A DNA stretch of 54,896 bases, counting the filler, from Jimgerdemannia flammicorona (taxonomy: Eukaryota), in assembly GCA_003990765.1 (NCBI GenBank). It is 3 parts of 3 records of this genome, joined end to end, with 100 filler letters (N's around TTAATTAATTAA, not from the genome) between each part and the next. Parts side by side here need not be neighbours in the genome. Positions count along the whole stretch, not along the records: positions 36,667 to 54,896 come from RBNJ01002256.1; 2 more parts are not named here. One strand, written 5' to 3'. Below are positions 3,047 to 54,896 of the stretch, piece by piece. Position numbers and translations under genes: made by a program. Position 1 is the first letter of the stretch; each line of letters opens with the position of its first letter. A model generated the notes under the pieces. That model made no database searches, had not been told where the DNA came from, and saw nothing but the letters and a program-made list of their open reading frames with translations.

Positions 3047-3047
3047 A

Positions 3048-3060
3048 CTCTCCACTTCTT
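3048..3060 (-). other. Polypurine tract of copy A
   Basis: Minus strand AAGAAGTGGAGAG lies immediately before the LTR and matches the copy C PPT AAGAAGGGGAGAG. Confidence 0.8.
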
Positions 3061-10238: not shown

Positions 10239-10241
10239 ACT

Positions 10242-10253
10242 TGATAGCAGCAG
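10242..10253 (+). other. Putative primer-binding site of copy B
   Basis: TGATAGCAGCAG lies 3 nt after the LTR end and reverts to TGGTAGC..., resembling initiator tRNA-Met PBSs. The tRNA identity is inference. Confidence 0.55.
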
Positions 10254-10276
10254 TTTACAATCCAATTTCACTTCAA

Positions 10277-18235: not shown

Positions 18236-18335
18236 NNNNNNNNNNNNNNNNNNNNNNNNNNNNNNNNNNNNNNNNNNNNTTAATTAATTAANNNNNNNNN
18301 NNNNNNNNNNNNNNNNNNNNNNNNNNNNNNNNNNN
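18236..18335. other. Assembly gap with artificial linker
   Basis: 44 N + TTAATTAATTAA (stops in all six frames) + 44 N. Confidence 0.97.
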
Positions 18336-25380: not shown

Positions 25381-26593
25381 AGAGCTATTCTTATACAACT
25401 TGAAATTCAATATAACTGAGATTTTGTCATTCTCCTCATTTTCTTCAGAGAGTCTAGCCAAATTATTTTCTACAACTTTTACAGTTATGCTGAGATTAGT
25501 GAAGAGCTCTGTGGATGATAAAAGAGGACTTATATACTCCTCCAGAAGGTTGTTAAGATTTCCTTTCCATGAAATAAGTAGTTCACTCTACTCTAGTTCT
25601 TGAGGTCTCCAATCAATAGTGTTATCATCTATAAGTAGAGTATATCTATAGAATTCTAAGGGTAGTAGACTCTTAGAGAGGGGCCTTAGAACAATGCAAT
25701 CAGACCTTAGAGAAACTGATCTGAGTTGTCCTCTAAAATGGAGTTCTAAAGGTCTTGAACCTCATCACTCTTGACCATAATAGTAGACAGAGCTTCTTCT
25801 GTAACTATTTCTTCAAGATGGTCTATATAGTGGCTTATCAGTTCTTATATATCTAAAACCTTGACATATTTTAAGTTGGGAATGGTCCAGAGTATATGTC
25901 TGAATATCTAGTAGACTTCTTAGCCAACTTCTGTTCATATTAATCTAGATATATAGTATCTATAATTTCTTGAGAGCTGGTCTATGAGAAGTCTTAGTGG
26001 AGATGATATCTCAACTCATATTTCTACTATATCTAGAGATACTCAGTAGTAGTAGAGATTTTTGTTTCTATTTTATAGTAGTTGAGGATATAGTAATATG
26101 GGTCTCTTGTAAAGAGGTTGGCTTAGAGTCTTTCTTGTATACATTCTTATAGCTCTTTTGATATTAGAGAATATTTAATATTGAACTAATAGACCTTAGT
26201 AGTTTCTTGATCTTACTGTTTAGTAGATAGCACACATTTTGTTTTATATTGAGTTTCTTATTTATAGATATATAATGTCTTGTACTTCTTTTTGATACTT
26301 CTTTTATAACCTAAGGGTCTTTTTCTTTAATCTAGAGAGTAGAGTCACCTGATTTAGAATAGTATACTACTGAGAATACTATGAGTCACAATGAGTTTAG
26401 ATGCAGATCATTTTCAAGCCAAGATGAGTCATAGTTGAGTCATAATTTATAACTGGAGACTTATGAAGTCTGGGCAGTCCCTGACTTCTGATGTCATCAG
26501 TTTCAAAGGTATCATTTTTTTTTTTTTTTTTATAGTCCCTTGGACTCCATCTTTATTACCAGTCTATGAATAAGTATACAATAACACCCCCCT

Positions 26594-29500: not shown

Positions 29501-30250
29501 GGAATTTAGGTGCCAATGTCCAGGCCCATCACCACTTCCCCCAAAACACCCCTGTCCCAAAAGGCCCCAGTGATCGGACCACAGACACCATTCTACCTCT
29601 AGCACCTTCCAAACATCACGGCCCCAACAGTTGGCCATCAGAATCCAGTCAATCCTTGTCCCCAGACCTCCAGCCCAATGCATATATACCCTCCTGTCCC
29701 CCCAGTACTCCCTACCAGCATCCACCAGTGCTCCTAGTCTTTCAACCTCCTCCCATATTGCCAGCCCCCCACTCCTGCTCTCAGCACCTCATCCTCTATC
29801 AGTTCTATCCATCCATACATCCCAAACCATATTGAAATCTCCTCCAAGTATATCCAACCCAGCCTCAGCAAGGATTCCACTCTCCAGGAGCCCTTTCACC
29901 CAATCCACATGCTCCCCCCACACAGCAGGGCAGTAACAGGAGCCAACTGTAACTGGCTCCCAACCTGCATGAATCCACTCATCCCAGACCAGTCTCTCCC
30001 CCCAGCTCCTCACATTCTGTATCTCCCCTCTGCCTTTTCGAACCAGAATCCTGACCTTGCTGTTCCAAATCGCTATGCCACCCCATTCCCTAGTCCATTC
30101 CATCCTATCAGAATCATCCTCACACCTAACATCCTGCAAGAGGAAGAGATTGGCCTCCAATCCCTTCAACCAAATAAAAATGTTCCTGTGTCTAACTGTA
30201 TCCCTTAGCCCATTCACGTTCAAAGAAAAAATGTTGGTTGTACTATTCAT
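26594..30250 (-). pseudogene. LINE ORF2: APE endonuclease, RT and C-terminal CCHC (about 1218 aa, in-frame stops)
   Basis: All ORF pieces share one frame: SLNVNGL, ILGGDFN, RIDWIL, SDH, APGEDGLP, LDQEKAYDRV, GVPQGDPLSP, AFADD, YLGI, CEEC...H...C. Confidence 0.93.
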
Positions 30251-30280
30251 AATGAAATATGGTTTGTTTGTAATCAATCC

Positions 30281-32311
30281 CTACTGCTCCATGCCCATCT
30301 CCTCCTGTGCCATGTCCAGATTATGTTCAGCCATCACCTCCTCCTCTTCAGCCCTCTGAACCTCCAGTCCAGCCAACAGCTCATTCATCTCCTCATCAGC
30401 CTTCTCCTCAAACTCCTCTCTATACTCAATGCAAGCCTCCTGCCAAAGCTGCAACCCATGATGCCTGTTCCAACAGTACTCAGCCTTCTCCCCAGCGATA
30501 ACTGCCAACTCTGCCTCTCTCTCCTTGTCTACCTCATACCCTTCCTCCTCCAGATATACTACGAGAATTTCCACCTTCAGTGCCATCGCCACTCCTTCCC
30601 CCTGCAAAATTCTTGCCCAGTGCTCGTCACCCATCCCATGCAAGTCCACCTCCCCCAGCTCTTCTGCCACCAGGTTGTTTATCATCCGGCACATCCAAAG
30701 TAGGTTCCCCACCTCCTTCCCACCAGGGGTTGCCAGCCTCCCTCCGTCCAGCATCATAGTATCAGCCCCAGCACTCGTATCCTCATCCCACACCTCCAGG
30801 ACATCCACCAGTTCCTCCTCTCCAGCCGCCACTATCTGGTCCCCATCCATTACCTCCGGAATGCTGAATTTCACCTGCTGGGTCCCCAGCATCATCATGT
30901 CCTCCCCAGATTTGTTCCTAGAAGCCGGGCCACACCTAATGAGAGGAGAAGGGGTGGGGGAGTTCTCCCAGACTTCCTCCCAAACCTCCAAGATGCCATC
31001 TATATATGGGTTACTAATCGTCACCTCTTTTGCCTTCCCTGTCTTTGTCCCATCATTTCCACTCCTCTCACCAGCCCAGACACTTGCTCCAGCCCCTTCT
31101 GCACCTGTCGTTATGCTTGCACCCTTCTGTGGTCTACCTCCCAGTTTAGCCAGCAAATCCTTCTGCTACTTCTGCCCCTGAGCCCTTTCCCACTGCACCT
31201 TGTCTACATGAATCCTCTTTCCATCTACTCCCTCCAGGTGTGTTGACTCCTCGAAAGTCTTCCAGACCTTGGCATGCCGTTCCACAGCCCCATCCAGCTC
31301 CTCTAGCGCTTCCAACAAATCCTCCTCCTCTTTTTCACTTCCTTTCACCCGCATCACCTTGCACAGGAATGCACCCCAAACCATCGCTGAAGGCCAGTCC
31401 CTCGTCTTCCCAGTAGCCTCTTTTCTGGCCAGCCGAATCCTCACATCCATGTCCCCAGTCCTGAGTGTGGTCCCTTTCCAGACCCTGAATCCGATATCCA
31501 CTACCTCGCCATACTCCGCCGTGATATCCTCTACTCTCTTCCTCGTCTCTATCACCGTCACCATAGGGACCCCTTTCACCAGCAGTTGGACCACCCTTGG
31601 ATCCCATTTCAAACACCTCGCCATCGGAATACACACCTCTCCAACCACCAACCCAACCCTCAGTGCCTCCTCCAGTGGTTCGACCTCCTCAAAACCCACT
31701 TCCACCCCCTCCAGTCTCTTCAGGAACTTCACCAAAGCTGCTCCAGCCACCTGCTTAGCGATAAGCCCCAACACCATTTTTGCTGTCACTGCTAAGCCCC
31801 AGAAACACAGTGTGACTGCGAATGCCAAGATCAACTTCTTGAGTAACAGAGCCACTGCCAGTCCCGTTACACCATCTGCCAGATCTCTGGGCCTCGTGCC
31901 CTTCCCACCACTCGGCTCACCATCAGCAGTCCCATCTAGATTTTTTTCCAGATCGCCTGTCACACCCCCATCAGCAGTCCTCGCCCCAGCCACTACCCCC
32001 CCAGCTCCATCCCTATGGCCCTCCAGAGAGGTACCCCCAAGAGGTTGCTACCTGGTAGCCTTCACCGGTACCTTCCCCCCTCGCAGCCAGCTCTCCAGTC
32101 CAGCCCCTTACTGACCCCCCTTCACCTTCTCTGCAAAGCTCACCCTGCCAGACTCTTGACCTCCAGCTCCACCCCCTCCTCCACCATGGCCTCCCACCAG
32201 CAGGCCCCTCATACTTCCCCCCAAGCCAGGGCCTCTCCCCACTTGCTGCCATTCAAACGCTCCAGGGCCACCCTGCCCAGTATGCACCTCCGGATGCTCG
32301 TTGGTTGCTAT
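30281..32311 (-). pseudogene. LINE ORF1 (about 676 aa; RRM-like middle, acidic coiled-coil-like C-terminus)
   Basis: 31166-31993 and 30281-31156 are in one frame. The start is mutated to ATA at 32311, and (M)ATNEHPEVHTGQGGPGAFEW aligns with MVSNEQTGGQAGQGGSHAFDW at 54598. Confidence 0.85.
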
Positions 32312-36566: not shown

Positions 36567-36666
36567 NNNNNNNNNNNNNNNNNNNNNNNNNNNNNNNNNN
36601 NNNNNNNNNNTTAATTAATTAANNNNNNNNNNNNNNNNNNNNNNNNNNNNNNNNNNNNNNNNNNNN
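36567..36666. other. Assembly gap with artificial linker
   Basis: 44 N + TTAATTAATTAA + 44 N. Confidence 0.97.
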
Positions 36667-36668
36667 AA

Positions 36669-37592
36669 GATGCTTCCTCACCCTGCTACAAACCCCTCTG
36701 AGAATTCCTACAAGTTGGTATAAAGCCCAACCTCTGAACTGGAATTTATCCTGAACTATCTGACAATCTGGAGAGAATTGAATCTGACGTACAAGGACAA
36801 TTTGACCTCTACACCTGCAATAAGTGGGACAAACTCCATTCTAAGAAAGAAGTACTCCGGTTAAACCAGCAAATAGGCGAAACCCTATTCACTGAACTCC
36901 TTGCTCTATACCCAGCAAGTCAAGATGAAGAAGGTCTTATTGAAGCCTTCTTTACCCTTCTCAACAAGAGTTTTGTCAGCTCCACAAATCCGAGCGATCT
37001 AGGACAACCAGCAGCAGTCTTTCTAGCCTTAGTTCCTCACGAAGCCCAAGCCTCTGTAGCCAAGTAGCTCAACTCTACCAACTTTCACCGTACCAGAACC
37101 AAGACTGCCTTATACTACCGATTCCAGAACAGCAAGGCCCGCCATATCCTCAAAGAAGAAGCAAGAGAAATCCTTCATCAACTACCTGACCCCGAACCTG
37201 AAGCAGGTCCTGCTACAGCCCTACCTGAATCTGAAACTAATACTGAACCTGAACTTGACTTTGAATTAAGCCCATCTGAAATCAGATATACAACTGATTC
37301 CATCTACTTTGATGCTGAGCAAACCCAATTACACAGAGACCAAACTGAAGAAGAGGAGGAGTATCTTACCGAATTCAATCCTGGATACACCACTGAAGGA
37401 GACACACACCCATCAGGACAGAATACACCTACACAGCAACAAACAGCTATCTATCAAGCCCTCACTCCAGATCTACAACTACTACTCCAGCAACTTACAC
37501 AGACCCAAAGAACCCTATCACACTCTGCACCAGTACCTCAAGTAGTACCAGTAACACTACTACCAGCAGTCCAACTACCTCTAGCAATCAAT
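36669..37592 (+). pseudogene. 308-codon Met-free frame contiguous with gag (putative N-terminal extension)
   Basis: In frame with ATG 37593. It has only three stops (2 TGA, 1 TAG), and the translation is protein-like: helical, then acidic, then Q/P-rich. Confidence 0.5.
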
Positions 37593-40500
37593 ATGGCAAA
37601 CCAACAGATTCTAGACCTCACAGCCCAAGTAGCTATAATGGCAGCAACTATTACTGCCTTAGCTGAACAGACCCAACCTACCAAAAATCTGAGCCTACCT
37701 ACCTTTAATGGTACTGCACAAGAAGTCCAAAGCTTCATTAGTGTAGTTGACACCAACTTTGAAGCCAATCAATGGACCAATGAGCAAGTTGCTGACTGCG
37801 TTCTGACAAACAATCAAGACCACACGCTGGAACAACTCTTTGCTACCACTACAGCCTATGTCCGCCGAGTTGTTACATTCTTCCGAGGACCTGCCGAAGA
37901 ATGGTGGCGAACCCTTTCTGAAAAACCCCTCACATGGGATACCTGACCTGCAGTAGTTGCTCAGAATGCAGCAAACAATGCCCCAGGATATGGAGCCCAT
38001 CCTGCAGCCCCTGGACTCAAATAACTCATGATTGCCCAATACCGCAGCGAAACCATGATTGCTGAATCTCAAGTAAAACTCCGCAACCTCAAATTCGACA
38101 TACATGGCAAAGAAGAATTTGAAACCTTCTGTACAAAACTCGAGTCACTCCTGAATACTGTTGGCCTAGGATACATTGCCAACGATGAAGCACGAAATAG
38201 TACAAGAGCAGACCATTTATTTGATGCCCTGCCTGAATGGCTTACTAGAAAAATCCGAGAACAAGGCCACCCAGTTGGTTGTGATCACCAACAATGGTGC
38301 CTAGCAAGAATCAAGACCATGGTCAAGCGAATCCTAACAGCTGGACCAATTCTGCCCCGAAGGCAATTCAATAACAAGGAAAAGACTTGGACCAAGAAAG
38401 AAGAACCCAGGCATGAAGCATCTTGAGCTCCCTCCACATCCACCTCTTGGACACCCAGAAATCATGAACCCACCCAGCCAAGTACCTTCAAGAAACTTAC
38501 TGAAGGCAAAAGAAATGAACTTTGAAGAAGCAGAGCATGCTTCTATTGCCAAAAGACAGAACACATGGCCAGTACCTGCCCCAACCGAAAACCCCAAACA
38601 GCAACACGAGCAACTGTTACCACTCTGCACCACCTCAACAACCTGACCACCAGAACACTAGACTTTGTCAAGTTAAGACAAACTGCTAAGGCCCCAACCA
38701 AAGGAAGTCAAAAAGTAGCTAGATATGACCTGTATGCCGCCGAAGAAGCCACAGTTTCCAACCGAGAAGTCAAACAAGTCTACACAGGAATCAGTATCCA
38801 AATCCCTGAAGGACATATTGGAAGAATATGCTGTCGCAGCAGCCTAGCACTGAAAGAACTCTCAGTAGAAGGAGGAGTCATTGACGAGGATTACACAGGC
38901 GAAATTATTGTCCTTATTCGAAACCACAGTTGGACACCCTTCAAGATCCCTATTGGCTTCTGCATTGCCCAGATTCTATTCGAAAAAATCGAGTCAACCC
39001 TGACAGTCAAAGAAGTCCCTGAATTATTGCCCACCATCCGAGGATCCAAAGGATTTGGCTCATCAAACAAGGCCCCAGCCCAACCTACCACAAGCAAAGA
39101 AGAACAATTCTACAAGAAGATCGAAGATAGATATGTACCAAGTGGCCGATGCCCTCATAGTATTGGAATGTACTCTTCCCGAATGATTGATGATTGCTTC
39201 TCTTGTGTCAACGAACTGGCTCAAAGAAGAATCAACAGAAGAAAAGCTCCTACAACTGAAATCACTAGCATTGGATCAGACAAACTGCTCACTCTTAAAG
39301 CTTTTGTCAACGGAGCACCTGTCAAGATTATAATAGACAGTGGTGCCTCAGGCAATTTCATCAATGAGGAGACAGCCAACAGACTCAAGGTCTTCACCTC
39401 CCCAGTACAGCAAACTCAAGCAGTTGCTACAGCTGATGGAACCTCACATGTTATTAGCAAAGAAGTCCGCAATCTACCCTTCTGAATTGGCGACTACCGA
39501 GTACATGTTACCCTCCAAATCGTACCACTTCCTGACAATGAAATCATCCTTGGGACTCTATGGTTAAAACAAGAGAACCCCATGATTGATTGGGTAAACC
39601 ATTCTCTGACCATCAAGAAAGGACACCACAACTTCAAACTACAAGGCGAAAAGGACCCACTCAACTCTGGTGACTCTGGACCAAAGATCACCCACATTAA
39701 CAAGCTACAACTCAAGAAATTGGCCAAGAAATGCCCTCTCTTCGCCATCTCCATCTGACCATCCAAAGGAGAACCTGAGAACTCTGAAGAAGATTTTTTC
39801 AAAGTTGACAGCCATGTCAGACCACTACTTCAGAAATTCCAAAACATATTCCCAAAGAAGCTCCCGAAAGGCCTACCTCCCAAACGAGCAGTAGACCATG
39901 CAATCAAGACTATCCCAGATGCCAAACCAGCCTTCAAGTCAATCTATCACATGTCTCCGAGAGAAATTGATGCACTCAAGAAGGAAATCGACGAACTCCT
40001 AGAACAAGGATTCATCAGACCTAGCGTATCACCCTATGGTGCACCAGTCCTCTTTGTTGTCAAGAAAGGAGGAGACCTACGAATGTGCATTGACTACCAC
40101 GATCTCAATGAACAGACCATCAAGAATTGTTGCCCACTACCGAGGATCGATGAAATATTCGATAGACTTACCAACTCACAATTCATGAGCTCTTTTGACC
40201 TGCGAAATAGTTACTGGCAAATTGCCATGAAAGAAGAAGATATCTACAAGACAGCCTTCCGAACTTGCTATGGACACTTCGAGTTCCTGGTTATGCCCTT
40301 TGGCTTAACTAATGCTCCAGCAACCTTCCAGACACTGATGAATACTATTCTGCATCCATACTTAGACAAATTCGTTGTTGTCTACATTGACAACATCCTA
40401 GTCTTCAGCAAAACCCTGGAGGAACATCTCGAACACCTTGAACTAGTACTACTGAAACTCCGAGAAAACCGACTCTTTGCAAAACTCAGCAAGTGTGAAT

Positions 40501-42701
40501 TTCTTCTGAAAGAAATTCAATTCCTTGGACACATTGTCACTCCAAATGGAATCAAAGTGGACCCCAGCAAAATCTCTGCAATCAAAGATTGGCCCAGACC
40601 GAAGAAGCTGAAAGACCTCCAGTCATTCCTGGGATTAGCAAACTATTACAGGCGATTTGTTGCCAACTTCGCTAAAATCGCTACTGCCCTCAACCAAATG
40701 ACCAAGCACAACAACAAACAAGAGAAAGACTTCAACAATCTTGAAAATTGGGGACCCAAACAAGATACTGCCTTCCAAGCACTGAAAGATGCTCTGATAA
40801 CTACACCAGTACTTCAAGCGGCAAACCCTGCCCTACCATATGAAGTCACCACTGATGCCTCTGACCTAGCTCTTAGAGCAGTACTCATGCAAGAAGGACA
40901 CCCTGTGGCCTATCACTCCTGCAAGTTCAATGATGCCGAAATCAACTACGCAACTCACGAGAAGGAAATGCTAGCCATCATAGACACTCTGATCAAATGG
41001 CGACCATACCTAGAAGGAGCACACTTCACTGTATTGACTGACTACAAGTCATTAGTCAACATCAAGACACAGGCTACCCTTTCCCGAAAGCAAGCTAGAT
41101 GGATGAAAGTCCTCACCAACTTTGACTATGAAATTCAGTACCGCCCTGGCAAGGAAAATATTGTTGCCGATGTAATCTCCAGACCACCAATCGAAGAGAT
41201 TATCCAAACTCTGACCTTGGTTACTAACACTATCATGGAACAAATCATTGCAGCATGTGTTGATGATAAAGAAGCTCAAACACTCCAAGAAATCCTGAAC
41301 AATGATGATGCTGACAAGTATACCCGGTACAATCAATACCAACTCAAGGACAATACTATCTACTACAAGGACAGATTGTATGTTCCAAACAACTGAGACC
41401 TCCGAAGGACTATCTTATTCGAATGTCATGATGCCCCTACAGCTGGACATTTAGGATTTGATAAATGTTACGAAGTTATCTCCCAAAACTTCTATTGGTC
41501 CCATATGGCAGATCAGCTCAAGACCTACATCACTTCCTGTGATGCCTGCCAATGAAACAAGTCCTCAACATTAGCAAAACCCGGCTTACTTCACCCTATC
41601 CCAGTACTATCCACAAATTGGGAACAAATCTCTATGGACTTCATTATACAACTACCCCAAACCAAGAACGGGAAAAATGCAATTGTTGTCTTTGTGGACT
41701 ATCTCAGCAAACAAGCCCACCTTGTGCCTACTACCACTACTGCAACAGCACCAGACATAGCCACACTCTTGTTTGACAACATCTTCTGCTATCATGATCT
41801 TCCCAAGATCATTGTTAGTGACCGAGACCTGAAATTCACCAGCCATTTTTGGAAAGCCCTCCATGCACACCTTGGAACGAAACTTGCACTATCCACAGCC
41901 TTTCATCCTGAAACCGATGGCCAAACCAAAAGAATGAACTGAACTCTGGAACAAATGCTAAGGAACTATGTCTCCTACAGACAAGATGATTGGCATGAAC
42001 ACCTCACCGCAGTCGAGTTTGCCTATAACAATAGCAAGCAAGCCTCTCTAGGAATGACCCCATTCTTCACTAATACTGGACAAAACCCAAACACCCCTTT
42101 GACACTTATCCAAACCACTGAAGAACCCTCCACAGTCGAAGCCGTTGAAGAATTCCTACTCCGAATGCGCAATCTAAGCCAGATCGCAATTGAGAATTTA
42201 TCACGAGCACAAGAACAACAGTCACAGTATGTTAACCAACACCGCCGAGAAGAAACCTTTGATATTGGAGAAAAAGTTCTACTGGACATCAGAGGATACT
42301 GAGTTGACAACCTCAAGTACAGACCATCTACAAAGCTGAACAGTAAGTTCATTGGACCATTTGAAGTCGTTACATAAGTCTCTCCAACCTCCTACAAACT
42401 GGCACTACCAGACACCATTAAGATTCATCCAGTCTTTAATGTTCAATGTCTCAAGCGATACAATGACAATGATGACGAGCTATTTCCAAATTGGACCACC
42501 AAACCACCTGCACCTGTCATTATTAATGACCAAGAAGAGTATGAAGTTGAACAAATTCTCAACAAGCATAGCAACAAGAACCATCCTGAGTACCTTGTCA
42601 AATGGAAAGGTTACCCGATCCATGATGCAACCTGGGAACCCAAGACCAATCTCCAGAATGCTACCAACCTAGTTCAGGAATATGATTCCTTGAACAACTA
42701 G
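37593..42701 (+). pseudogene. Single-frame Gag-dUTPase-PR-RT-RNaseH-IN-chromodomain polyprotein (about 1700 codons, about 11 nonsense transitions, no frameshift)
   Basis: All ORF pieces start at positions divisible by 3. Motifs: CFYCQKTEHMASTC (38538-38579), [29 protein letters not shown] (YIDD in copy B), TDASD, H..GH...CDAC, MDFI...SDRD...FHPETDGQT, GPF, EEYEVEQIL...YLVKWKGY....ATWEP. Confidence 0.95.
38658..39065 (+). other. dut: dUTPase domain between the Gag zinc knuckle and the protease
   Basis: Motifs 1-5: ARYDL (G in copy A), RSSLA, GGVIDEDYTGEI, IAQ, RGSKGFGSS. Confidence 0.95.
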
Positions 42702-43112
42702 AACCAAATACTCTGTACCTATCCATACATACTATATATTACCCTCCTGAACATTATAACTATCACGAACCAAGTCAAGAACTCAGCAAAACAAGATAAG
42801 AATACCGACCCTCTGGAAAAATAGCAAAACTGAAAGCAAGCGTATTCTCCCTGTACCACTGGTGGGAAATAAGGCATAGACATTTAAGAAGATTCCTTAG
42901 AGGAAATTCTCCAGTAGTGAATGACATCAGAATCACTTCCGGCGCACGGTATTGAATACACGACCCTTTAACGTGTGAATCCAACGTATTAGGCAACTGT
43001 ACTACAAGCATGCCACTTTCTGAGAAAATGGACCTTACCGGACTTTTGACCTCCCAAATGGTGTAACAACACTAGAACAAATTAGAAGGCCCCGACGAGG
43101 ACGTCGAAAGCT

Positions 43113-43125
43113 AAGAAGGGGAGAG
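43113..43125 (+). other. Polypurine tract of copy C
   Basis: AAGAAGGGGAGAG lies 1 nt before TGTAAG. Confidence 0.88.
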
Positions 43126-43325
43126 TTGTAAGCGCACAACCTCCAAGCCACCGAAATTACACGTCACCCTCTGAACAAGCCACTGAAATACATATGACCT
43201 CTGAACTAATCTGGAAATCACCTGCTTGATCACAAAGCTGAGTCAATACGAAGTCACAGAACACAAGATCTACACAAACGGAACCTTACCAATCAGGACC
43301 AAATGCATATATACTAAGCACCGAG

Positions 43326-44480
43326 ATGCGTCGAATCAGAGAACCAAAACAAACAACAACCACAACTTCCAAACACACAAACATGACCACTGAGATCTAC
43401 AACCATATCTGCGCTGACATTTGGAATGCCATTGTCAACCGAGCCACACCCCCTTTGCCCCTCATGAATATCCATAGCCTGGCACCCCTCTACTTCATGG
43501 AAGCCCGATGGAACGCCCTGAACATGCTTAGCGAGGTCCACCGAATCGGACAAATCTCAAGCTACTACCAGATTGGCCGCCTCCTAGATGACATGGTCGA
43601 ACACCACCATGATATAGATATTACCCAGATGTCTCAACACCAGAAGCTCATCGCCCACAAACATCGAGAACTCTTCTATGAGTACAACACCTTTATTTCC
43701 CGCCTCCGAGTTACTACCAGCGAAATGGTTGCTATCCTGTCCTATGGCCAAATCGATGACATGATACAAGAACTCAACCACAAGTACCTCGAATACGTCC
43801 AGACTACAGACAGAACCTTCCCGCACCCTGATGACCATATTCTGCAAATGCCTCAAGTCGGATACGCCATGAAGGACATCTACGATATAATCCACTTCGA
43901 CGAAGATGAAGTAGAAGACAATGATTTCTCTAATGCTGACATAACCTCTAGCCAAGGATCTCTGCCAACCCTGATCACTCTGCCAACCTTGCCGATGAAC
44001 TTACAACAGTTCATAACAGTATACGAGACTTATTGGGACAATGACCACTGGCACGAATACCAATCCGCATTTACCCCCAATTACTTCAATTACAATGAAG
44101 AGACCAGAGAACACAACCTGTACCTCCAAATAACCCTAGAGATCGAACCAACAACCCCACCATCTGAGTATGAGCGACATGAACCACAGCCACTGGCTTA
44201 CTACAACTCTGCGACTCATAGTGCTGTAACCTATAGAAGGTATGCAGATAGCAAATCTGATGAAAGCGAAGACAATACACCCATCCTTTGCCCACCAACA
44301 CCTTATCCAGCATATGAAACAGACGATGCTATCCTGTGGGATGGAGATGAAGTTCCAATGTATTATTACCTCAGCGAACAAGGAGAAGTAATCCGTGAAC
44401 CATTATTCCTAGATGACTACTTCATCAGAGATGATACAATCAATGGTGATGTCATCAAAGACTACCCAGATAGTGCCTAA
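43326..44480 (+). CDS. LTR-encoded protein of unknown function (384 aa; conserved start probably ATG 43383, 365 aa)
   Basis: Intact ORF lying wholly inside the LTR. Its length is conserved in copy B. The protein is acidic and Tyr/His/Asp-rich, with no obvious signal peptide or transmembrane segment. Confidence 0.8.
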   Translation: MRRIREPKQTTTTTSKHTNMTTEIYNHICADIWNAIVNRATPPLPLMNIHSLAPLYFMEARWNALNMLSEVHRIGQISSYYQIGRLLDDMVEHHHDIDITQMSQHQKLIAHKHRELFYEYNTFISRLRVTTSEMVAILSYGQIDDMIQELNHKYLEYVQTTDRTFPHPDDHILQMPQVGYAMKDIYDIIHFDEDEVEDNDFSNADITSSQGSLPTLITLPTLPMNLQQFITVYETYWDNDHWHEYQSAFTPNYFNYNEETREHNLYLQITLEIEPTTPPSEYERHEPQPLAYYNSATHSAVTYRRYADSKSDESEDNTPILCPPTPYPAYETDDAILWDGDEVPMYYYLSEQGEVIREPLFLDDYFIRDDTINGDVIKDYPDSA

Positions 44481-44671
44481 AAACCTATAAATAGTCTAGC
44501 AGTCATAGTATAGATAGATTAGCCTTGTACGATGTGACTGTGAACTGACTCAGCAGTCAGACGATCTCTTGACATGTCAGATCACACTTGTACTATGTGA
44601 CTGCATTCCGACTCAGCAAGACACTTAGTGCTACATCCATATTCAGCATAGTCCAGATAGCCCCTCACTAG

Positions 44672-44679
44672 TATAAATA
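44672..44679 (+). promoter_or_regulatory. LTR TATA box
   Basis: TATAAATA followed by a C-rich tract, conserved in all three LTRs (9763 on +; about 1490-1497 on -). Confidence 0.7.
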
Positions 44680-44796
44680 CCCCCTCCCCCAGACCTCAGA
44701 ATCTCAGACTTGAACAATCCGAACACAACTCCTGAGCACTTCCCCACAATATCCCTTTACACAAATACTCCTAGTATAGCAATATCATGAATAGCA

Positions 44797-44802
44797 AATA
44801 AA
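44797..44802 (+). promoter_or_regulatory. Candidate LTR polyadenylation signal
   Basis: AATAAA about 120 nt downstream of the TATA box, conserved in all three LTRs. Confidence 0.5.
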
Positions 44803-46354
44803 CCTATTCTATAACCCACAAACCACTCTTAAGTAAATCCGCTCCCTGTTAGGTCCTACTCCTAACCCTGTCACGAAATTTCCTAATTGGGTATTGTCTG
44901 TAGCAATATGCCAATTCAACTAAGCTGGTCTTAGTTTCTTGAACTTCCTGAAATACAGAAAATCCTGAACATCCAGAACTAGTCTGGAAAAGAACTTTGG
45001 TTGAGACATCAACCCGATCTTGAAATCAATAAGCGTAGAGGACGTACTCTATACGAAATTGATCTTGACCATAAGAAAACAGTCTTCCAGAATATCCAGA
45101 ACTTCCAGAAAACCTTCTAGAACTATGTAATGGCTACCCTAAAAAGTAACCCTCTTACAATAAGAGTTAAAATACCAGAACTCCAATATATTCTCTCTTA
45201 TATAATTACTTTTCTTTAATAGGCTTCTCTATTTCATTTCATTTATTTTTATTTTGGAGGCTGAAAAGTAATAGATAGAATAAAGAAGAGGAGAGAAAAG
45301 AGTAATTGAATAGAGATTAATAGAATCTATCTAGTATCTTGCAGATCTCACCAAACTATATTAATACCTTTCTTTATCTTCTCTATCCCTATGACTTTAC
45401 AGAACCTGTTTAATATCTATCTTCATCTAGTCTATAATTAGTACTATAAGTAAGCCTGTCTCATTTAGCATTAATAATATATCTTGTTCTATACCTATAT
45501 TGTCATTCTGATAAAGAATAGCAACTGTGAAACTCTGTAGTTATCTTGATATATATATACTTATAACAGTACAGAACATATATTAAGAATATAGGTAGGA
45601 GACAAGATAGAGATGAGCAGAGCAGAATGGCTATTATGTAGGTAGAAAGAGAGTTGTAAGTAAGATTGTAGATAGAGACAGGGTTAGTATGAAGTCTAGA
45701 TCAGTTTAACTCAATATGATAATTATAGAGTTGAAATAAAAACATAGTATGGCCATAGCCATATCAATATATAAATAAATTAAATAAAGAGATTATTGAT
45801 AAAAAAAGACTTCATTATAAGTTTTATGAAGATTGTACTAGTAGGTTTTATGATAGGACTAAGTTATATATTATAATATAACAGATGCTTAACTTAGAAA
45901 ATATAATAAATTTCTTTATCTAGGTTTCTTGATCTTCTTAAGTTCAAAGATATATCTGCCTATAAGTAATTTAGTTTTTTTGAACTATTTTGATCTGAGG
46001 TTTATTTACTCTAAAATACTAGATTATTTATATAAGTTTTTTTAACTATATGATGACTAAGTTATGAGTCAGTTATTGCAATCCTCAATATTATTAAGAT
46101 TTCAATTTATTGTAATCTCAATATTATTGACAATTATATTTGAGAATCAGATTCAGATACTACAATCAAATATCTATCTCCTTGATTGTTCTTAATTTGA
46201 ATCATATATCACAATATATAAATAAAATAATACTAAGTATCATTACTATACTTTAATCACTCTAACTCACATTATAATATATATTAGCACTACCACTATT
46301 CTGATCACTATACTGATAACTCTAATAGGCAAATCACTCATACTAACAAATAGA

Positions 46355-49300
46355 CTCTTTCTGATATATCTCATATTATACAAATATATATCACCTACTT
46401 TTATACCATTTTTTGGAGAAATATCTTAAGAATATATCCTCAAATTAGAGTTCTACAGAGTATACTAAGCAGGATAGACTCAGTGCATTCAGCTAGCAGT
46501 ATGTGGGGAGGGGTCAGAGAGTAGGTTTGGAGATGCTGAGTACTTTGTTTTTTTTTTTTTTTTTTTTTTATAGTCTCTTAGACTTCTTTCTTTATTAATA
46601 TACCTATCTATCTTATATAATATACTGAACCCTCCCCTTATCTGATCCTCCTAGAAGGCCCCCTCTCCTCCTATACTCTCTCAATTAAAGACTACTAGAT
46701 TATTAATCATTGCTACCTGCCCATCACTCTGTTCACAGATCCCTTCTACCAGATAGTGATAGCACTCACTCTGGGGGCTCCAACCAACCCACTACCCTTT
46801 CAGCAAATCTCCCATCAACTCCTTCCATCTTAATAACTTCTCCTGCAGACCCAGCTATCACCTCTCTTCAAAAACAAAGAGTCAATATCCAGCCAACCCA
46901 ACTTATACAGCTAAAACCCACCCTACAGTGAGCCATTTATTGTCTACACTATCTACTAACCTAGATTTCAAATCTTTCCAGTAATCTCTCTCCCCATCTG
47001 GTCTCCTCTTTACACCCAGCTGGTCTCCTACTACTATCCAAAAGTTTCTCAGAACCTTACACTCTTCTAGCCAATATTCTGGTATCTGTACAAATCTCCC
47101 AACTTATTTCACATTGTAATACTCCTCACACTCTAATTGTCCACTAACTACTAAATGATAAGTATGAAAATTCAACATGATATTCCTCTGCAGTATCTGT
47201 TATCATACTATCCAAAACTTGGAAGGAAGCCACCTCCACACCTCAGCACTCTATAACCAGATATCTACTCAGTCTCATTCTTTACCAATCCTCACTGTCT
47301 GTCAACTGCTTGGTCAAAGATCCTGACCAAGTCCCTGCTGACACTCTACTCCATTACTAATATCAAACTCAGTAAGTAGAGTACTTCCCAAAAGCAATCT
47401 GTCTTACTGCCACATAGCTGGTCCCCATAGCATCTTCCCCTTATTACTATGCTAGTGCAGACCAATACAGTGTACTCCATCCACTACCCCCTACCAGAAG
47501 TCTTTATACCTTAGCTGTCAGCTCCCACCCAGGTTTACCAGAGATAGCAAATCTCTTGAGGACCCTTGTGGGGAGAATCTCATCTCCCACACCTTCTGTA
47601 TTAGTGGCACCCAACTCTCTCCCTACAGTTCAATAGTCTATTTCAATCACTAAGCTCTCAGGCAGTACAGCCTTCTAGGAAAATCCACCAGTCCTAGTCC
47701 CTCATGAACCACTGACATTACAAGGGTATCTCAACTGATCTGAGACCATCTCTCTGTCCAAATCCAGTCCCTTACCAGTTTCATTAGTCTCTTTACCACC
47801 CAAGCTAGAAAATCCAAGTGATGAGCAATATACCATAGCTTGGGGAATCAGTAGATATTCAGAATTAATACCTGGTCTACTAGAGAGATATATTGACCTC
47901 ACCAACCTCTAAGAGCTTTCTCCCAGATATCCACCCTACTCTCCCACCACACTCATGATAAGACAGATCCATATACTGAAAGGTAGATATCTAAATACTG
48001 CACTACTTCTTCTGTCAGGACAATTGTTCCAATGATATCTCCTCCTACTAGCTCATTTTCCAACACCATTGTCTCACACTTATGCCAGTTGAGTTTTGCT
48101 CTAGAGTGTGTCTCATACCATTCCACCATTTCCTTAAGTACCCTAACATCTGCTACTAAACCAAGTCCAACTACTATGTCATCTACAAAGGCCCCCACCT
48201 TCTATACTACACTATAGATAGAGAGCCCTACTACCTTCTATCAAATCCTATCTATTAAAGGTTCTAATGAAAGAGTATAGAGAATCAGAGACAGTGGATC
48301 TCCCTGAGGAACCCCTCTCCCCAAGGAGAATACTAGACCCCAGTGACCATTGCACATCAGAACCACCCTACTACCCTCTAACAGATTCAATATAGAAGCT
48401 CAAAATTATAGAGAAATACTAATTCTATTCAGTACCTTGCCCAGCCACACCTGCCAAATACAGTCATAAACCTTCTCTTGGTCTAAAAAAAATAGTCTTC
48501 TATTCAATTCACTAGCCTGTGCCCCTTCAATGATAGTATAAACTTAGGCCATTCTATCTCTTATAAGTCTACCTCCAACAAAGCTCTGCTGCTCCTCACC
48601 TAGTACCTATTGGATAACCTTCTATAATCTCATGACAATCACCTTAGTTACCAACTTTCTATCTATATCCAGAAACATTATTAGTCTCTAGTTCTTCCAG
48701 TCCTCCCTCCTTCTCTTGTCCTTGTACAATAAGGCCACCAACTCTAAGTCCTGCTCTCCAACCTACTCACTCTTCAGAAGAATGAGGTCACATAGGGCTG
48801 CCATCTCTCCTAACATACCAGGGACCTTTGCCATCTTCTTTCAAAAGTTCCAAGGTAGCCCATCTTCTCCTAGTGCTATCCTAAGCTTAGTTGCTGCAAG
48901 AACTCTCTGGATCTCCTCCTCTTAGACTGGTAGGATCAAGTCTCTAAGGCCCTCTACTTGTAGCAGTTCCCAATCCTCCAGTATATCTCCAATTGCCTCC
49001 TCATCAGCACCCCCTTTCTCCTCACTCTACAGACCCCTTCACCACTCCTTTAGTAACCCCAAGATCTGTTGCATGCCATATACCATTTCTCTCTCAGCAT
49101 CAAGGACTCCATCCCATCAATATCACACCCTTCTAGCCTAGAGGAGCCTTGACAAGTATCTAGTAGGCCTCTCTTCCTCCTCAAGCCCCTGTTACCTCAG
49201 CCTAGCTACCATTTCTTTCATATATATCTCCTTCTCCTCTCTTAATACCTGTTATAGCTCTACTACTTCCAATTTTGCTCATACCAACCTCTAATCATCC

Positions 49301-52300
49301 ACCTCTCCAGAACTTATCAAATCTGTCCATTCCATCTGCAGACTCAACAACCTATTAGAAGTACACCTTACCCTTTTCTGTCTCTATCTCCCAGCATCCC
49401 TACCAGCCTCTCAGTAAACCTGTATAGTCTCTTTCAACTTTATCCAATAGGCACCCACTGGTGCACCCTTATGTATCCATCTAACAATCTTTGCTTGAAT
49501 GTCCTTCACTGCTCTAATAAACCCCAGTAATCCGACTATGGGCACCACTCCACCTCTAAAGACTTCCAAATATCTATACCTTAGCATTCAGCTATCAGGA
49601 TCTAGTCAATCCTTATATCTAGTCTATTCATCTAGTGTGTAGATCCACTTTTCTCCCCACTATCTTCTGCCTATATCCCTCAAAGAGCTAAGGGTCTCCA
49701 CCTCCTTCCATGCATCTAGGCCCCCACTTCTTCCACCAGCACTCCTTTCTCCATCAGTTCAATCTAACTGAAGATTCTACACCATATTGAAGTCTCCTCC
49801 CAGAACATCTACCCTCTCCTCCAGGAGCACACCCTCTTCTAACATACCCTTAATCCATGCAATCCACTCATCCCTAGCTGCTGGACAGTAGCAGGAGCCA
49901 ACTCTCACTAGCTCTCACCCAGGTCGATGCCATTCCCCCTAAACCAAATGGTCTCTCTAGCTCCTGATTCCATCTAAATCCCCTCTACTACCCTATATCA
50001 AAATTGCCACTTTGTCAATCCAAGCTATAGCCCTACCTCATTCTCTAGTCTACTCTACTTAATCCTCCTCATCTTCACAATGTACATCCTGCAACAAAAA
50101 GAGATCAGCCTTCAATCCCTTAAGCTAAGTAAAAATGTTCTTATACTGCTCAGATCTCTGTAACTCATTCATATTTAGAGAAAAAATATTAGTTGTACTG
50201 TTTATTAAGAATAATATTTAGAAGTAGTATAATGTTCATCCTCTACAAATCCATGGTCATCCCCTTCTATACTAAGTCTAAGTTACATTTGGCAGCCAAT
50301 TCCTTCTCTTCAGCCTTCTTTACCTCTAATCTAGCCAGAAGTTCAGCTATCTCCCCATTCTCTTTTTAAGTTCTCATGATACTCCAGGCAGGCCTCTTGT
50401 TAGAGTTACAAACCATGATGCTCTGCCCAATAGTAGGCAGCCCTCTCACTAGCAACAACTGCCAGTTCAGCCTCTCTTTCCTTATCAATCTCATATTTCT
50501 CCTTCTCTAGAAAAATTACAAGCATCTCTGCCTTCAGTGTCTCCATAACCCTATTACCATGCAGAATCCTCACCCAATACTCCTCACTCATCACTCTCAG
50601 GTCCACTTCTCTCAACTCTTCTACTATAAAGTTATTCATCATCTGGCTCATCTACAGTAGGTTCCCCACCTCTTTCCCTCCTAGTGATGCTGGCCTCCCA
50701 GCACTCAGTATTGTAGTATCTGCTCCTATACTTATAGTCTCATCTCACTTCTCCTCCAGGACATCCACCAGCTCATCCTTGCCAACTGCCACCATCTGTC
50801 CTCCTTTTACTATATCAGGAACTCCAAAATGTACTTGCTGAGTACTACACATAACTACATCTGCTGCCACCTTGCTCTTCATTGCTGGGCCCCTCCTAAT
50901 AAGGGGTGGAGTATCTTCCAAGACTTGTTTCCAGACCTCAAACATACCATCTACATAAGGGTTATTGTGTGGTACCTTCCCAGCTCCATCCAGGCCCTCC
51001 TTCATCTCTCCTCCTCTCTTACTAGCCCAGATACTTGCTTTGGTACCCCCAGACCCCTCAATACCACCAGACTCCTCAGTGCCACCAGCCTTCTTCTTTG
51101 CCCCTCCCTCTATGCTCATTAACAACTCCCTCTGCCTCTTGCACCCTTGAGCTACTATCTCTTATCATTGTGAATATGTTTTCCATCTATAATCTCCAAA
51201 TGCATTGACTCTATATATATCTTCCATGTCTTTACCCTCTACTCTACTACTCCACTCATCTCCTCCAGAGCCTCCAACAGATCCTCCTCCTCCTTCTCAC
51301 TCTCTTTCACTCTTGACATCTTACAGATGAAGGCTCTCCACATCATCACTGAAGGCCAGTTACTCATCTTTTCTATAATCTCTCTCTCAGCCAGTCTAAT
51401 CCAGATGTCAACATCTCTTGTTCTGAAAGAGGTCTTCTCCTATATCTGAAATCCAATATCAACTATATTACCATACTCTGCCATCACCTTCTCCACCCTC
51501 CTCCTGGTCTCAATCTTTGTCACTATAGGCACCCCCTTTACCAGTAGCTGGACCACTCTAGGGTTCCATCTCAAGCATTACACCATAGGTACCACCACCT
51601 CACCTATAGCTACTCTAGTCTTTAATACCTCCTCTAGTAGGCCTGCTTCCTCAAAACCTACTTCAACTCCCTCCAGTCTCTTTAGGAACTTCACTGAGAC
51701 AGCACTAGCCACTTGCTTTGAGATAATCCCTAGGACTATTTTTGCTATCACTACCAAGCTCTGAAAGCACAGAGTTACTATAAACTCTGAGATCAACTTC
51801 TTGAGTAATGGTGCCACCACTAGCCCCATCATACTATTAGCCAGGTCTCTCTTCCTTTTCAGTCCTATTAATCCAGCTCTCCCATCAGTAGTTACATCTG
51901 GATTTTTTTCCAGATTCTCAGTCATACTACCATTAGTAGTCTCCCCCCTACCTCCAGCTACTACTATACCAGCCCTTCTACCTACCAGCCCAGATGCTGA
52001 ACCCCCTGCCTCTACTTCTCTCTACTTCTCCTTCTCCCCTGCCTGACCTCTCCTAGATCCAACAGACCATTCTCTCTTCTTCAGCACATCTGCAAAGCTC
52101 CTCTCTCTCTGCTCTCCTATCTCTCCTTTAGTACCACTTTCACTACCCAAGCTGTCCTGCCCACTCAGACCACCAAAAGACCCCATCTCTAGTCTATACC
52201 CTCATCTGATAGTTTGCCAGTCAAAGGCCCCAGATCTACCTGATCTGGTATGTGTGTCAGCTTGTATGTTATTCACTATATCCTTAGTATCTTTCTCTAA

Positions 52301-54500
52301 TAAATAGCTCAAAAGTATGTTTTGAAGTTTGAATTATATGAGTGGTAGTGGGGAAAGATGCCACTGGCTGAGTACTTTGTCAAGAGGAAGGGGGGATAGT
52401 AGTGAAGGAGGAGGAGATATGGGGCAGTTAGGGGAGAAGTGGTTGACCTTCACTGATAAGGTCAAGATAGGATCTTAGGTGATGGGACTGGATGGATGGC
52501 TGGAGCTGGGAAAGGAGAAGGCAGATGCTAGAGAAAAAGAGAGAGCCCCTCTGGAGGGTCAGAGTAGAAGGGCCAGCAGTGCAGTAGCTGAAGGAGTGAC
52601 TGCTGATAGAAGTGTGATGGGCAATCTGGAAAAAAATCTAGATAGGACTACTGATAATAGACTGAGCTATGGGAAGGATATGAGGCCTAGTGATCTGGCT
52701 GATAGTATAATGGGTCTGGCAGTAACCCTATTACTCAAGAAGTCAATCTCAGAATTTATAGTTACTTTGTACTTCTGGGGCTTGGCAGTGATGGTGAAAA
52801 TAATCTTGGGGCTAATTGCAAAATAGATAAATAGTGCAATATCTGTAAAGTTTCTGAGGAGTCTAGAAGGAGTAGAGGTGGATTTTGAGAAGGCTGGACT
52901 ATTGGAGGATGTATTGAAGGCTGAGTTGACAGTTGGTAAGATATGTATCTCAATAGTATGCTACTTGAGGTAGAATCCTAGGGTGGTATAACTTCTGATA
53001 AAAGAGGTTCCTATAATAACTGCTGTAGAGATAAGGAGAAGAGTAGAGGAAGTCTTAGCTAAATATAGAGTGGTGGTCAATGTTGGGTTCAAGGTCTGAG
53101 AAGAGACCTCCTTTTGGACAGAGAATATTGATATCTAGATTCAGTTAACAAAGAGAGAGGCTACAGAGAAGGCTTATGATTGGCCTTCAGTGATGGTGTA
53201 GAGAGCCTTTATATGTAAGATAATAAGGATAAATGAGAGTGAGGAGAAGGAAGAGGACCTATTGGAGACACTGGAGGAGTTAAGTAGTATAGTAAAGTAG
53301 AGGGTGAGAGCTTGGAAGGCATATATGATATCAATATATTTAGAGATTATTGATGGGAGATATGTCTGTATTAATAAGGAGCTATAGTGGACATTCTTAG
53401 AGAAGACTTTAATATGGTCTGGGATACATTAGTGGATAGAACTGACAGAGGATAGGGGGTTGAGGACAGGAGTAGAGGTCTGGAGATATGAGAGAAAGTA
53501 GAGAGACTGAGCTCTCTAGTAGATACTGGCAGAGAGTTCTAGAGAGATAGGAGGATATATATACACTAGACAAATGGTCTGGAGATGAGGATTAACTGGA
53601 TGCTGATAGCAGACTGCTGGGGTTTAGATGTTTGGAAGTTACTGGAGGCTGAGTGATATCTATGGTCTGATTACTAGAAGCCATTAGGGCAGGGTCATTT
53701 CAGGGAGAGTGGGGATGAGCCTGGATATTGGTATCTCAATTCCTCTTTATTGGCTGAGAAGGTGTTGTGAGACAAGTGGGTAGAGGACATTCAGCAAAGT
53801 ATAGAGGGTTGGATATGGGGGGTGCCACAGTTGGTATCTGATGGATGAGATTGAAGGAGACTGCTAGAGTTTACTAAAGTAATACTGGTAAGGCAGTAGA
53901 AAGACAGAGGAGGAGGAGGGTGATCTGGGCTTCTGCTAGATTGGTGGGGCTTTTGGAAGATTGAGCAGAGCTCTTAGCCCTAGAGGGGATAGAGGACTGG
54001 AGGGTGAGGTGGGTGAAGCTAGAGGTTATAGAGTTATAACAGATATTGAGAGAGGAGGAGGAGATATAAGTGTGGAGTCTGGCTGTATGGTTATGCTGAT
54101 AGGAGCTGGAGGAGAGAGAGAGGCCATCTAAGTACTTTTTGAGAACCCTTTAGGTGAGGAGAGTGAGGCAGAGATGGGAGGGGGTTCTTGATTCTGATAG
54201 TCTACTGGTGCATGGTTTACAGGATATCTTGAGCTTGTTGAAGAAGAGATGGAGTGATTTGTAGAGTAAAGAGGAGGGTGGGGCTAATGCTGCTGTTATA
54301 GAACATACTTTAGAGGAATAGTACCCACTGCAAGTAGATAGACTGGGCAGCTTGGTGGGGCCTGTTCAGAAGGAGGAAATTTGTTAGATTCTTGCCACAA
54401 CTATGCCAGATATGGCACTAGAAGAGAATGGTCTGTTCTGAAACTTTTGAAAGAAGATGGTAGATATCCCTAGAGTACTGAGAGAGGTGATAGCACTTTG
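46355..54500 (+). mobile_element. Old LINE of the same family, split by the minus-strand LINE and internally deleted
   Basis: The ORF1 N-terminus remnant (about 46435-46548) resumes at 52381 after the TSD (ORF 52479-52826 is homologous to 31166-31993). Near 53388 it jumps from mid-ORF1 to the APE DILGGDFN region. It ends in early RT, where the next LINE starts. Confidence 0.8.
46549..52366 (-). mobile_element. Full-length hypermutated L1/Tx1-like LINE (5.8 kb)
   Basis: 14-bp TSD GCTGAGTACTTTGT at 46535-46548 and 52367-52380, and a poly(T) tail. ORF remnants 51578-51925, 50745-51125 and 50406-50651 (ORF1) and 47953-48198 (AFVDD, RT). Confidence 0.92.
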
Positions 54501-54896
54501 TCAAAACCGAATGGTCACCTTTCACCGGTAACATTCAGGTGACACAAGATTTGGACAACACTTTCTGCGAAGTTTTTGGTGAAAAGCTACTATCAACATG
54601 GTGAGCAACGAGCAAACTGGGGGGCAGGCCGGCCAGGGGGGCAGCCATGCCTTCGACTGGCAGCAGGTTGGGAGGAAACGAGGAGATGGTTTGGGGATTC
54701 CAGGGCCATCTGTGGTGGGCGGTGGCGCTGGAGGTAGAGGGAGAGGTGGACTGAGGCAGAGAGGTGGGGGGAGGGCGACCTTTGCCGACAGGGTCAGGAT
54801 GGGGAAGATGGCCATAGGGCTGGATGGTTGGTTGGGACTGGGGAAGGCGATGCCGGGTTCAGCAGGAGGGCAGGGAGGGTCCCCCATGGGAGCCTC
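54501..54896 (+). mobile_element. 5' end of a young, CpG-retaining LINE of the same family
   Basis: CTTTCACCGGTAACATTCAGGTGACACAAG from 54519 matches the 5' end of the 26517-32393 element. It runs off the window. Confidence 0.88.
54598..54896 (+). CDS. LINE ORF1 N-terminus (partial, open to the window end)
   Basis: MVSNEQTGGQAGQGGSHAFDWQQVG...TFADRVRMGKMAIGLDGWL, with no stop; homologous to the other ORF1 copies. Confidence 0.82.
   Translation, partial: MVSNEQTGGQAGQGGSHAFDWQQVGRKRGDGLGIPGPSVVGGGAGGRGRGGLRQRGGGRATFADRVRMGKMAIGLDGWLGLGKAMPGSAGGQGGSPMGA

Follow-up and report, generated by a model that had tools for sequence, protein, structure and literature searches.

Genes that reside in or overlap the U3 region of a long terminal repeat (LTR) are a retroviral feature, as seen in sag of mouse mammary tumour virus (MMTV), nef and the bel genes of foamy viruses. 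Here we describe a 54,896-nucleotide stretch of DNA from Jimgerdemannia flammicorona (assembly GCA_003990765.1), referred to below as the window, in which the 2-kb LTR of a Ty3/Gypsy element with dUTPase and chromodomain probably holds a real, element-specific accessory gene in U3, namely an open reading frame (ORF) at 43383-44480. The MMTV sag gene, which encodes a superantigen, is located in U3 of the viral LTR, and the two loci share several traits. In both, a long LTR encloses a full ORF of a few hundred codons that precedes the LTR promoter (here a putative one) and is duplicated together with the LTR, and such an ORF needs a spliced or internally initiated mRNA. However, Sag is made by a vertebrate retrovirus as a type II membrane glycoprotein, whereas the protein of the LTR ORF has neither a hydrophobic segment nor any Pfam match and belongs to an env-less retrotransposon.

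The nef gene of human immunodeficiency virus and bel/bet of foamy viruses are also accessory, non-structural 3' genes that reach into U3, and foamy viruses use an internal promoter. Those genes, however, start in the internal region, whereas here the whole gene and its putative promoter are inside the LTR. A gene embedded in the LTR, and hence expected twice per element and in solo LTRs, is also present in the plant Cassandra terminal-repeat retrotransposon in miniature, but that one is an RNA polymerase III-transcribed 5S rRNA gene of a non-autonomous element, while the ORF described here is a polymerase II protein ORF accompanied by a full gag-pol.

Retrotransposons are also known to carry additional ORFs (aORFs), such as gene23 of Grande, those of RIRE2, Retand, Ogre and Boty, and the extra ORFs of bdelloid elements (PMC7264820; PMC6431247; PMC5408684). 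As far as the accessible text of these sources goes, aORFs resemble the LTR ORF in being family-specific, of unknown function, often devoid of homologues and kept in most copies, but they are internal, located in sense or antisense either before gag or between pol and the 3' LTR, and none is described inside an LTR. With its position at 43383-44480, enclosed by the LTR termini 43127 and 45159, the ORF is not an aORF of the internal region. Among fungi, Ty3/Gypsy chromoviruses combining a chromodomain with a dUTPase domain in the polyprotein, as in the element described here, include Tuber Tmt1, Postia PosPlaTy3 and Phanerochaete elements; in the accessible part of that source a figure legend gives an "add. 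ORF" in some fungal elements, the position of which could not be seen (PMC2864245). The LTRs of Podospora crapaud elements, according to the available portion of the report, are 339-443 bp long with a variable U3, unlike the 2,033 bp found here, and the small size of the solo copies is reported to let them escape repeat-induced point mutation (RIP; PMC10787394). In the literature open to our search, which includes few subscription journals and was read in excerpts, we found no account of a protein-coding ORF within the LTR of a retrotransposon. In sum, the gene does not conform to env, to Sag, to an internal-region aORF or to a captured cellular gene, and it is best described as a variant that joins the accessory ORFs of LTR elements and the U3-borne genes of retroviruses.

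Comparison of the window with itself revealed three copies (A, B and C) of a single Ty3/Gypsy family. The 3' LTR of copy C (43127-45159, plus strand, 2,033 bp) has the termini TGTAAG (43127-43132) and CTTACA (45154-45159), that is, TG...CA with short inverted ends, and one base separates its start from the polypurine tract GAAAGCTAAGAAGGGGAGAG (43106-43125, plus strand). The same tract precedes the 3' LTR of copy A (997-3029, minus strand), which displays an 81.2% match to the copy C LTR. The 5' LTR of copy B (8221-10238, plus strand; 82.7% match to the copy C LTR over 8223-10238) is followed 3 nt downstream by TGATAGCAGCAG (10242-10253, plus strand), which presumably is a primer-binding site (PBS), as it resembles a tRNA 3' end with G>A changes. 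Beyond this PBS-like site the leader of copy B aligns with copy C from 36667 and is followed by gag. Both the copy A and the copy B LTR start with TATAAG, a G>A change from TGTAAG, and have CTTACA at the other end. The homology of the repeats begins at the same dinucleotide in all copies (43127, 8221 and 3029), and the DNA upstream of 8221 in copy B, which is the inverted internal region of copy A, is unrelated to what copies A and C have at that place. The same 2-kb sequence with identical ends is therefore found 5' of the internal region in copy B and 3' of it in copies A and C. Judged by this comparison between copies, 43127-45159 is a true LTR, and the start, the end and the preceding purine-rich tract given for it in the initial annotation agree with the alignment.

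Inside this LTR an open frame of 412 codons, counted stop to stop, spans 43242-44480 and offers two candidate starts, ATG 43326 (384 codons) and ATG 43383 (365 codons), upstream of a TAA stop codon at 44478-44480. Translation most likely starts at the second ATG, since ATG 43326 is not kept in copies A and B, the copies differ between the two ATGs by indels that are not multiples of three, and P0002, a metagenomic protein fragment 89% identical to the ORF product, begins (MTTEIYN) at Met 43383. The gene would then comprise 365 codons plus TAA (43383-44480, plus strand), and the upstream in-frame extension (43326-43382, plus strand) is probably 5' untranslated region and not coding. Of the range of 365-384 codons given in the initial annotation, both ATGs are indeed present, but the upper value depends on the one that is probably not the start. 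The same annotation placed the ORF in the LTRs of the other two copies as well, which is correct for the segment but not for its state, as the frame is intact in only one of the three copies, copy C. The copy B segment (8476-9573) has the identical length of 1098 bp with no indel but contains 10 in-frame stops, and the homologous segment in the 3' LTR of copy A (2779-1687) has 13 in-frame stops, a 1-nt insertion that shifts the frame and a 6-nt deletion. A tblastn search with the ORF protein against the window returned nothing beyond the three LTR copies. On the antisense strand of the LTR there is a single ORF of at least 80 codons, 84 codons long and opposite the gene (43584-43838, minus strand).

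To compare synonymous with non-synonymous change in the ORF, copies A and B were each scored against copy C, all C>T and G>A changes were excluded, and omega was obtained from the synonymous and non-synonymous counts relative to what the codons of copy C allow; the values are rough counts with no fitted model. In its own frame the ORF has 15 synonymous and 15 non-synonymous transversions, whereas 14.5% synonymous would be expected (p=4.5e-6, omega 0.17), and 35 synonymous and 29 non-synonymous reverse transitions (p=2e-5, omega 0.34). The two control frames gave omega values of 1.08-1.72: in frame +1 the transversions were 5/23 (synonymous/non-synonymous, omega 1.08) and the reverse transitions 15/44 (omega 1.13), and in frame +2 they were 3/22 (omega 1.71) and 17/39 (omega 1.72), respectively. 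The omega of the ORF in its own frame is similar to those of gag (transversions 10/7, omega 0.15; reverse transitions 19/14, omega 0.49) and pol, where the corresponding values are 6/7 (0.25) and 27/15 (0.30) for the dUTPase-protease region and 28/14 (0.09) and 40/24 (0.28) for the reverse transcriptase (RT)-RNase H region. The signal is stronger in the C-terminal half of the ORF (transversions 15 synonymous, 8 non-synonymous). By these counts the ORF has the substitution pattern of a protein-coding sequence on which purifying selection acts, and it does so in its own frame only. Its third-position composition resembles that of pol. The divergence per site not due to hypermutation is 0.055 for the ORF, 0.045 for RT-RNase H and 0.042 for the 3' non-coding part of the LTR, and because these values are similar, the ORF appears to have travelled with the element since before the copies diverged.

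The position of the ORF within the LTR can be approached through the expression signals. At 192 nt downstream of the ORF end there is a TATA box, TATAAATA (44672-44679, plus strand), which is invariant in all three copies and likely to be the promoter of the genomic RNA, and an AATAAA poly(A) signal at 44797-44802 (plus strand) is conserved in all three copies as well. The spacing between the two is usual for a U3/R border at approximately 44700-44760 and an R/U5 border, the end of R, near 44820. The ORF was placed in U3 because it is upstream of this TATA box and this poly(A) signal, which most likely define R; the location upstream of a TATA box at 44672, pointed out already in the initial annotation, fits this assignment. 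Another TATAAATA-like motif directly follows the stop codon (44486-44493, plus strand); it is kept in copy A and reads TATAGATA in copy B. Closer to the 5' end, the TATA-like box ATATATAC (43307-43314, plus strand) is found in all three copies 69-76 nt upstream of ATG 43383 and is a candidate promoter for the gene. This ATG has A at -3, and there is no AATAAA between the ORF stop codon and 44797.

The conserved upstream box and the missing AATAAA are also what would be expected if the gene were real and inside the LTR but located in a very long R, as part of the 5' leader. The RNA would then extend from just after the box at 43307 to the AATAAA at 44797, and the ORF would be its cap-proximal first cistron, repeated at both RNA ends. 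Some contigs of sequencing runs guessed to be RNA do begin at 43304-43382. The two runs concerned here, X16 and X20, are small and may in fact be DNA, and their contigs show no starts, ends, strand or level, so that they give weak hints at best. Their hints also point the other way: the summed contig depth of X16 and X20 does not rise until about 44759, where it goes from tens to thousands (approximately 100-fold), and next to 44724 there is an adapter-like loose end. Moreover, R would be approximately 1.45 kb long, which is far above its usual length, the perfectly conserved TATAAATA at 44672 is at the usual distance upstream of AATAAA, and gag-pol would become a distant downstream cistron. 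We therefore consider a long R unlikely and the placement of the gene in U3 preferable. Two X20 contigs align with the LTR from 44543 or 44572 onward and diverge upstream, which suggests the existence of related LTRs with the same promoter, R and U5 but another U3.

Relatives of the protein were sought in a word-indexed collection of 5.8 billion clusters and by an exhaustive scan of 1.84 billion representatives. The former returned a single match among sequences of near length and another among shorter ones, and the latter three (P0001, P0002 and P0003). P0001, a metagenomic protein of 247 amino acids from a 998-bp contig, is 65% identical (162/250, positives 204/250) to residues 134-383; the alignment has two in-frame 2-residue gaps and no stop, and P0001 has the same C-terminal end as the ORF. 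When neutral drift to 65% identity was simulated, 1% of 1000 runs remained stop-free and the mean was 4.5 stops. P0002 is also metagenomic (128 amino acids, 1180-bp contig), and its 89% identity extends over residues 20-147. The third match, P0003 (E=4e-4), was rejected as spurious, as it consists of a 38-residue match repeated along a tandem-repeat protein. At the nucleotide level, contigs assembled from a soil-metagenome run and from runs of two organisms known only by codes cover the LTR at 80-99% likeness. Of the 24 best-supported variants that these contigs show inside the ORF, 13 affect the third codon position (p=0.03) and 12 leave the amino acid unchanged.

Further searches were negative. 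In the metagenome scan the alignment matched 74 stretches, none of them related, and the R/U5 18-mer hit 38 loci, all of which turned out to be chance matches by blastn. Two protein scans of viral contigs gave no relative, the two loci picked up there by the 18-mer have their likeness confined to the seed, and no relative was found in prokaryote genome contigs. No Pfam family was assigned to the ORF protein at E up to 1. The only match in the PDB sequence search was noise (a monobody, E=0.2), and in the ESM Atlas the best score for the whole protein, 0.81, was below lead level, with no usable match for residues 115-365. The product is an acidic protein of 43 kDa (pI 4.43) with no hydrophobic or membrane segment (maximum 19-residue Kyte-Doolittle value 0.81). 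The lack of such a segment and of Pfam matches, together with the presence of the ORF in a 5' LTR, bears out the earlier remark that it does not look like env. Helices are weakly predicted for the first ~140 residues. Asp/Glu, Tyr/Phe/Trp and Pro abound in the rest of the chain, which has long blocks conserved in P0001 and is the more constrained half of the protein.

A protein of this kind might be a passenger, encoded by a gene that the LTR took up from the host or from a foreign source before the family expanded and that is of no use to the element; its coding signature would then stem from recent capture or from host-level selection on few copies. Gene capture by LTR retrotransposons is documented, as the accessible text of PMC7264820 states, no functional domain ties the protein to retrotransposition, and constraint is weak in the N-terminal half. 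On the other hand, no homologue outside the transposon family was found in either of the two protein collections or among the viral, metagenome and prokaryote contigs. The third-position composition matches that of pol, the constraint, which equals that on gag, shows in the differences between element lineages, and the 65%-identical relative retains both the frame and the position of the stop. Capture of a useless gene is, accordingly, quite unlikely in our view, and an accessory gene of the element itself is preferred.

With copy C as the reference, copies A (997-8220) and B (8221-15190) show C>T changes at 44-62% of CpG, 23-40% of CpA, 14-23% of CpC and 7-9% of CpT sites, with no excess of CAG or CTG (CHG) among them. 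The observed/expected ratio of CpG is 0.01-0.06 in copies A and B versus 0.4-0.6 in copy C, and the classic RIP dinucleotide indices are shifted only mildly. Such a transition pattern is RIP-like or of the methyl-cytosine-deamination type; a fungal host would agree with it, as it would with the occurrence of family members in soil-metagenome runs. All 10 stops of copy B and 12 of the 13 in copy A could have come about through C>T and G>A steps alone, the exception being a TAC>TAG change that these steps cannot reach.

Chance or a skewed composition might also have left the frame open in the copy least affected by mutation. G and T are scarce on this strand, so that stops are fewer, the frame is open in one copy of three, and no database family recognizes the product. 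In 2000 dinucleotide-preserving shuffles of the LTR read in six frames, however, the longest stop-free run averaged 99 codons with a maximum of 223, and not one shuffle reached 365 codons, let alone the observed 412 stop to stop; in the 54.9-kb window 16 frames run for 150 codons or more without a stop, and the ORF ranks second among them in length. Given also that the synonymous excess is specific to one frame and absent from both control frames, that nearly all stops of copies A and B are attainable by hypermutation, and that two independent relatives are open, a chance frame is very improbable. Finally, the notion that the ORF belongs to the internal region and occupies the env position there, with a short true LTR starting downstream of 44480, draws on the ORF following pol in copies C and A but can practically be dismissed, as the initial annotation already held, because the whole repeat bounds the internal region 5' in copy B and 3' in A and C: copy B has the entire ORF segment upstream of the PBS-like site and gag, and its homology starts exactly at the TG (8221) that follows the polypurine tract in C and A, with unrelated DNA, the inverted internal region of copy A, upstream of that TG.

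Several observations weigh against an accessory gene in U3 and have to be set beside the evidence above. True relatives number only two among the 1.84 billion representatives, and both P0001 and P0002 were found as open frames of a gene caller, so that their openness is partly a matter of ascertainment. The selection counts come from three DNA copies, two of them heavily hypermutated. In the N-terminal half there is no synonymous excess among transversions (0 synonymous, 7 non-synonymous), and this half is supported by the reverse transitions alone (12 synonymous, 14 non-synonymous, p=0.011). The mean pLDDT (predicted local distance difference test) of AlphaFold2 models was 33.0 from the single sequence and 31.2 with a three-row alignment, both uninformative. 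None of the three copies in the window has both LTRs, and the LTR status consequently rests on comparison between copies. In the X16/X20 data, with the limits given above, the ORF part is far shallower in contig depth (approximately 100 times) than 44759-45030, and none of the listed runs that carry the LTR is on record as RNA.

The ORF of copy C has six CGA codons and no TGA, in keeping with the count of at least six in the initial annotation, and its gag-pol contains 11 internal stops, close to the number of nonsense changes estimated there. Nine of these 11 are TGA, and CGA is their likely source at codons for which copies A and B have CAA or CGA. That the ORF is intact while pol is broken (TGA/CGA 0/6 vs 9/31) is not significant (Fisher p=0.33); it was rightly called only suggestive at the outset, and we rejected it as proof of selection.

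The internal region of copy C (36667-43126, plus strand) is a single reading frame with 11 internal stops; in all, its gag-pol frame has 13 stops in 1988 codons, the other two being one upstream of gag and the natural pol stop. All of its features are on the plus strand. The gag gene extends from 37068 to approximately 38580 with a CCHC knuckle (motif at 38538). It is followed by dUTPase and protease at 38526-39485 (Pfam dUTPase PF00692, 1.1e-31; gag-asp_proteas/RVP_2), RT and RNase H at 39759-41396 (RVT_1, 2.6e-33; RT_RNaseH, 6.6e-31), integrase at 41556-41942 (rve, 1.7e-8) and a chromodomain at 42378-42701 (Chromo, 3.2e-18). The order gag, protease, RT, RNase H, integrase, chromodomain fits a Ty3/Gypsy chromovirus, with dUTPase in addition; the dUTPase domain is situated in the polyprotein between the CCHC knuckle of gag (38538) and the protease, an order also described in a small number of fungal chromoviruses (PMC2864245). 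Among the matches listed, from plants, algae and fungi, the RT-RNase H region shares at most ~50-59% identity.

At its 5' end (~43147-43212) the copy C LTR has a tandem duplication of ~33 nt (GCCACYGAAAT...CCTCTGAAC) that is absent from A and B, and contigs from runs X2 and X20 skip 32 or 60 nt at ~43147-43212. The internal region of copy A occupies 3030-8220 on the minus strand, and that of copy B, on the plus strand, ends at 15190, where it is truncated by another repeat; both were delineated by the self-comparison of the window. The copy B LTR start (8221) directly abuts the inverted internal region of copy A (8220). This 8220/8221 junction is a nested insertion or a rearrangement, and the remainder of copy A was not found downstream of copy B in the window. 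Two identical spacers, N44-TTAATTAATTAA-N44, at 18236-18335 and 36567-36666 look like artificial contig joins, and the second one removes the 5' end of copy C, including its 5' LTR and PBS. A second repeat family is located at 26515-32031, with relatives at 15198-16563 and 47038-51948 and an inverted one at 52546-54501. Its plus strand is strongly C-rich (GC ~0.52, GC skew ~-0.45), its minus strand has an RT fragment at 27740-28402 (RVT_1, 7.6e-14), and several open frames of 160-300 codons on both strands are without a Pfam match. No tRNA genes or Rfam families were detected in the window.

In the reading that we prefer, an accessory gene in U3, the gene would occupy the 5' three-quarters of the LTR, upstream of the TATA box at 44672 and the AATAAA at 44797, and would have been kept by purifying selection while the element family diversified. 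Being in U3, it would be copied by reverse transcription to both ends of each new insertion, and it would persist in solo LTRs. As for its expression, a small transcription unit of its own in every LTR, with the TATA-like box at 43307 in front of the ORF and the poly(A) signal of the LTR behind it, is somewhat favoured by the signals described, because the box is conserved 69-76 nt before the ATG, the ATG has A at -3 and AATAAA is missing before 44797. By analogy with MMTV sag, the gene might instead be expressed from the 3' LTR through a spliced subgenomic RNA, which we consider less likely. The product would be a soluble, acidic 43-kDa protein acting in trans for the element family, with a target either in the regulation of element transcription and replication or in host genome defence. 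Candidate roles put forward in the initial annotation are those of a transactivator, a suppressor of silencing or hypermutation, and a copy-number factor. A more speculative extension, which we regard as doubtful, is that each LTR would be a self-contained cassette (promoter, ORF and poly(A) signal) for a lineage-restricted accessory protein used against the host, for example by activating its own promoter or by blunting repeat-directed silencing or hypermutation of the sort that has spoiled copies A and B. The LTRs would then make up a dispersed, dosage-amplifying family of counter-defence or regulatory genes, an analogue of MMTV sag or the lentiviral accessory genes.

LTRs of fungal-type Gypsy elements are as a rule short and non-coding, which makes the present one unusual. 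Retrotransposon LTRs are treated as non-coding control regions, and their neutral evolution is taken for granted both in annotation pipelines and when the age of insertions is estimated. If our interpretation is true, a selected protein gene in U3 would break this assumption for the element family described here. A 2-kb LTR should also be costly under repeat-induced hypermutation, as the two LTRs of one element are a long duplicate, and retention of the gene despite this cost suggests a compensating benefit to the element. The family would thereby provide a non-retroviral example of an LTR-borne accessory gene, the copies of which would scale with the number of LTRs, solo LTRs included.

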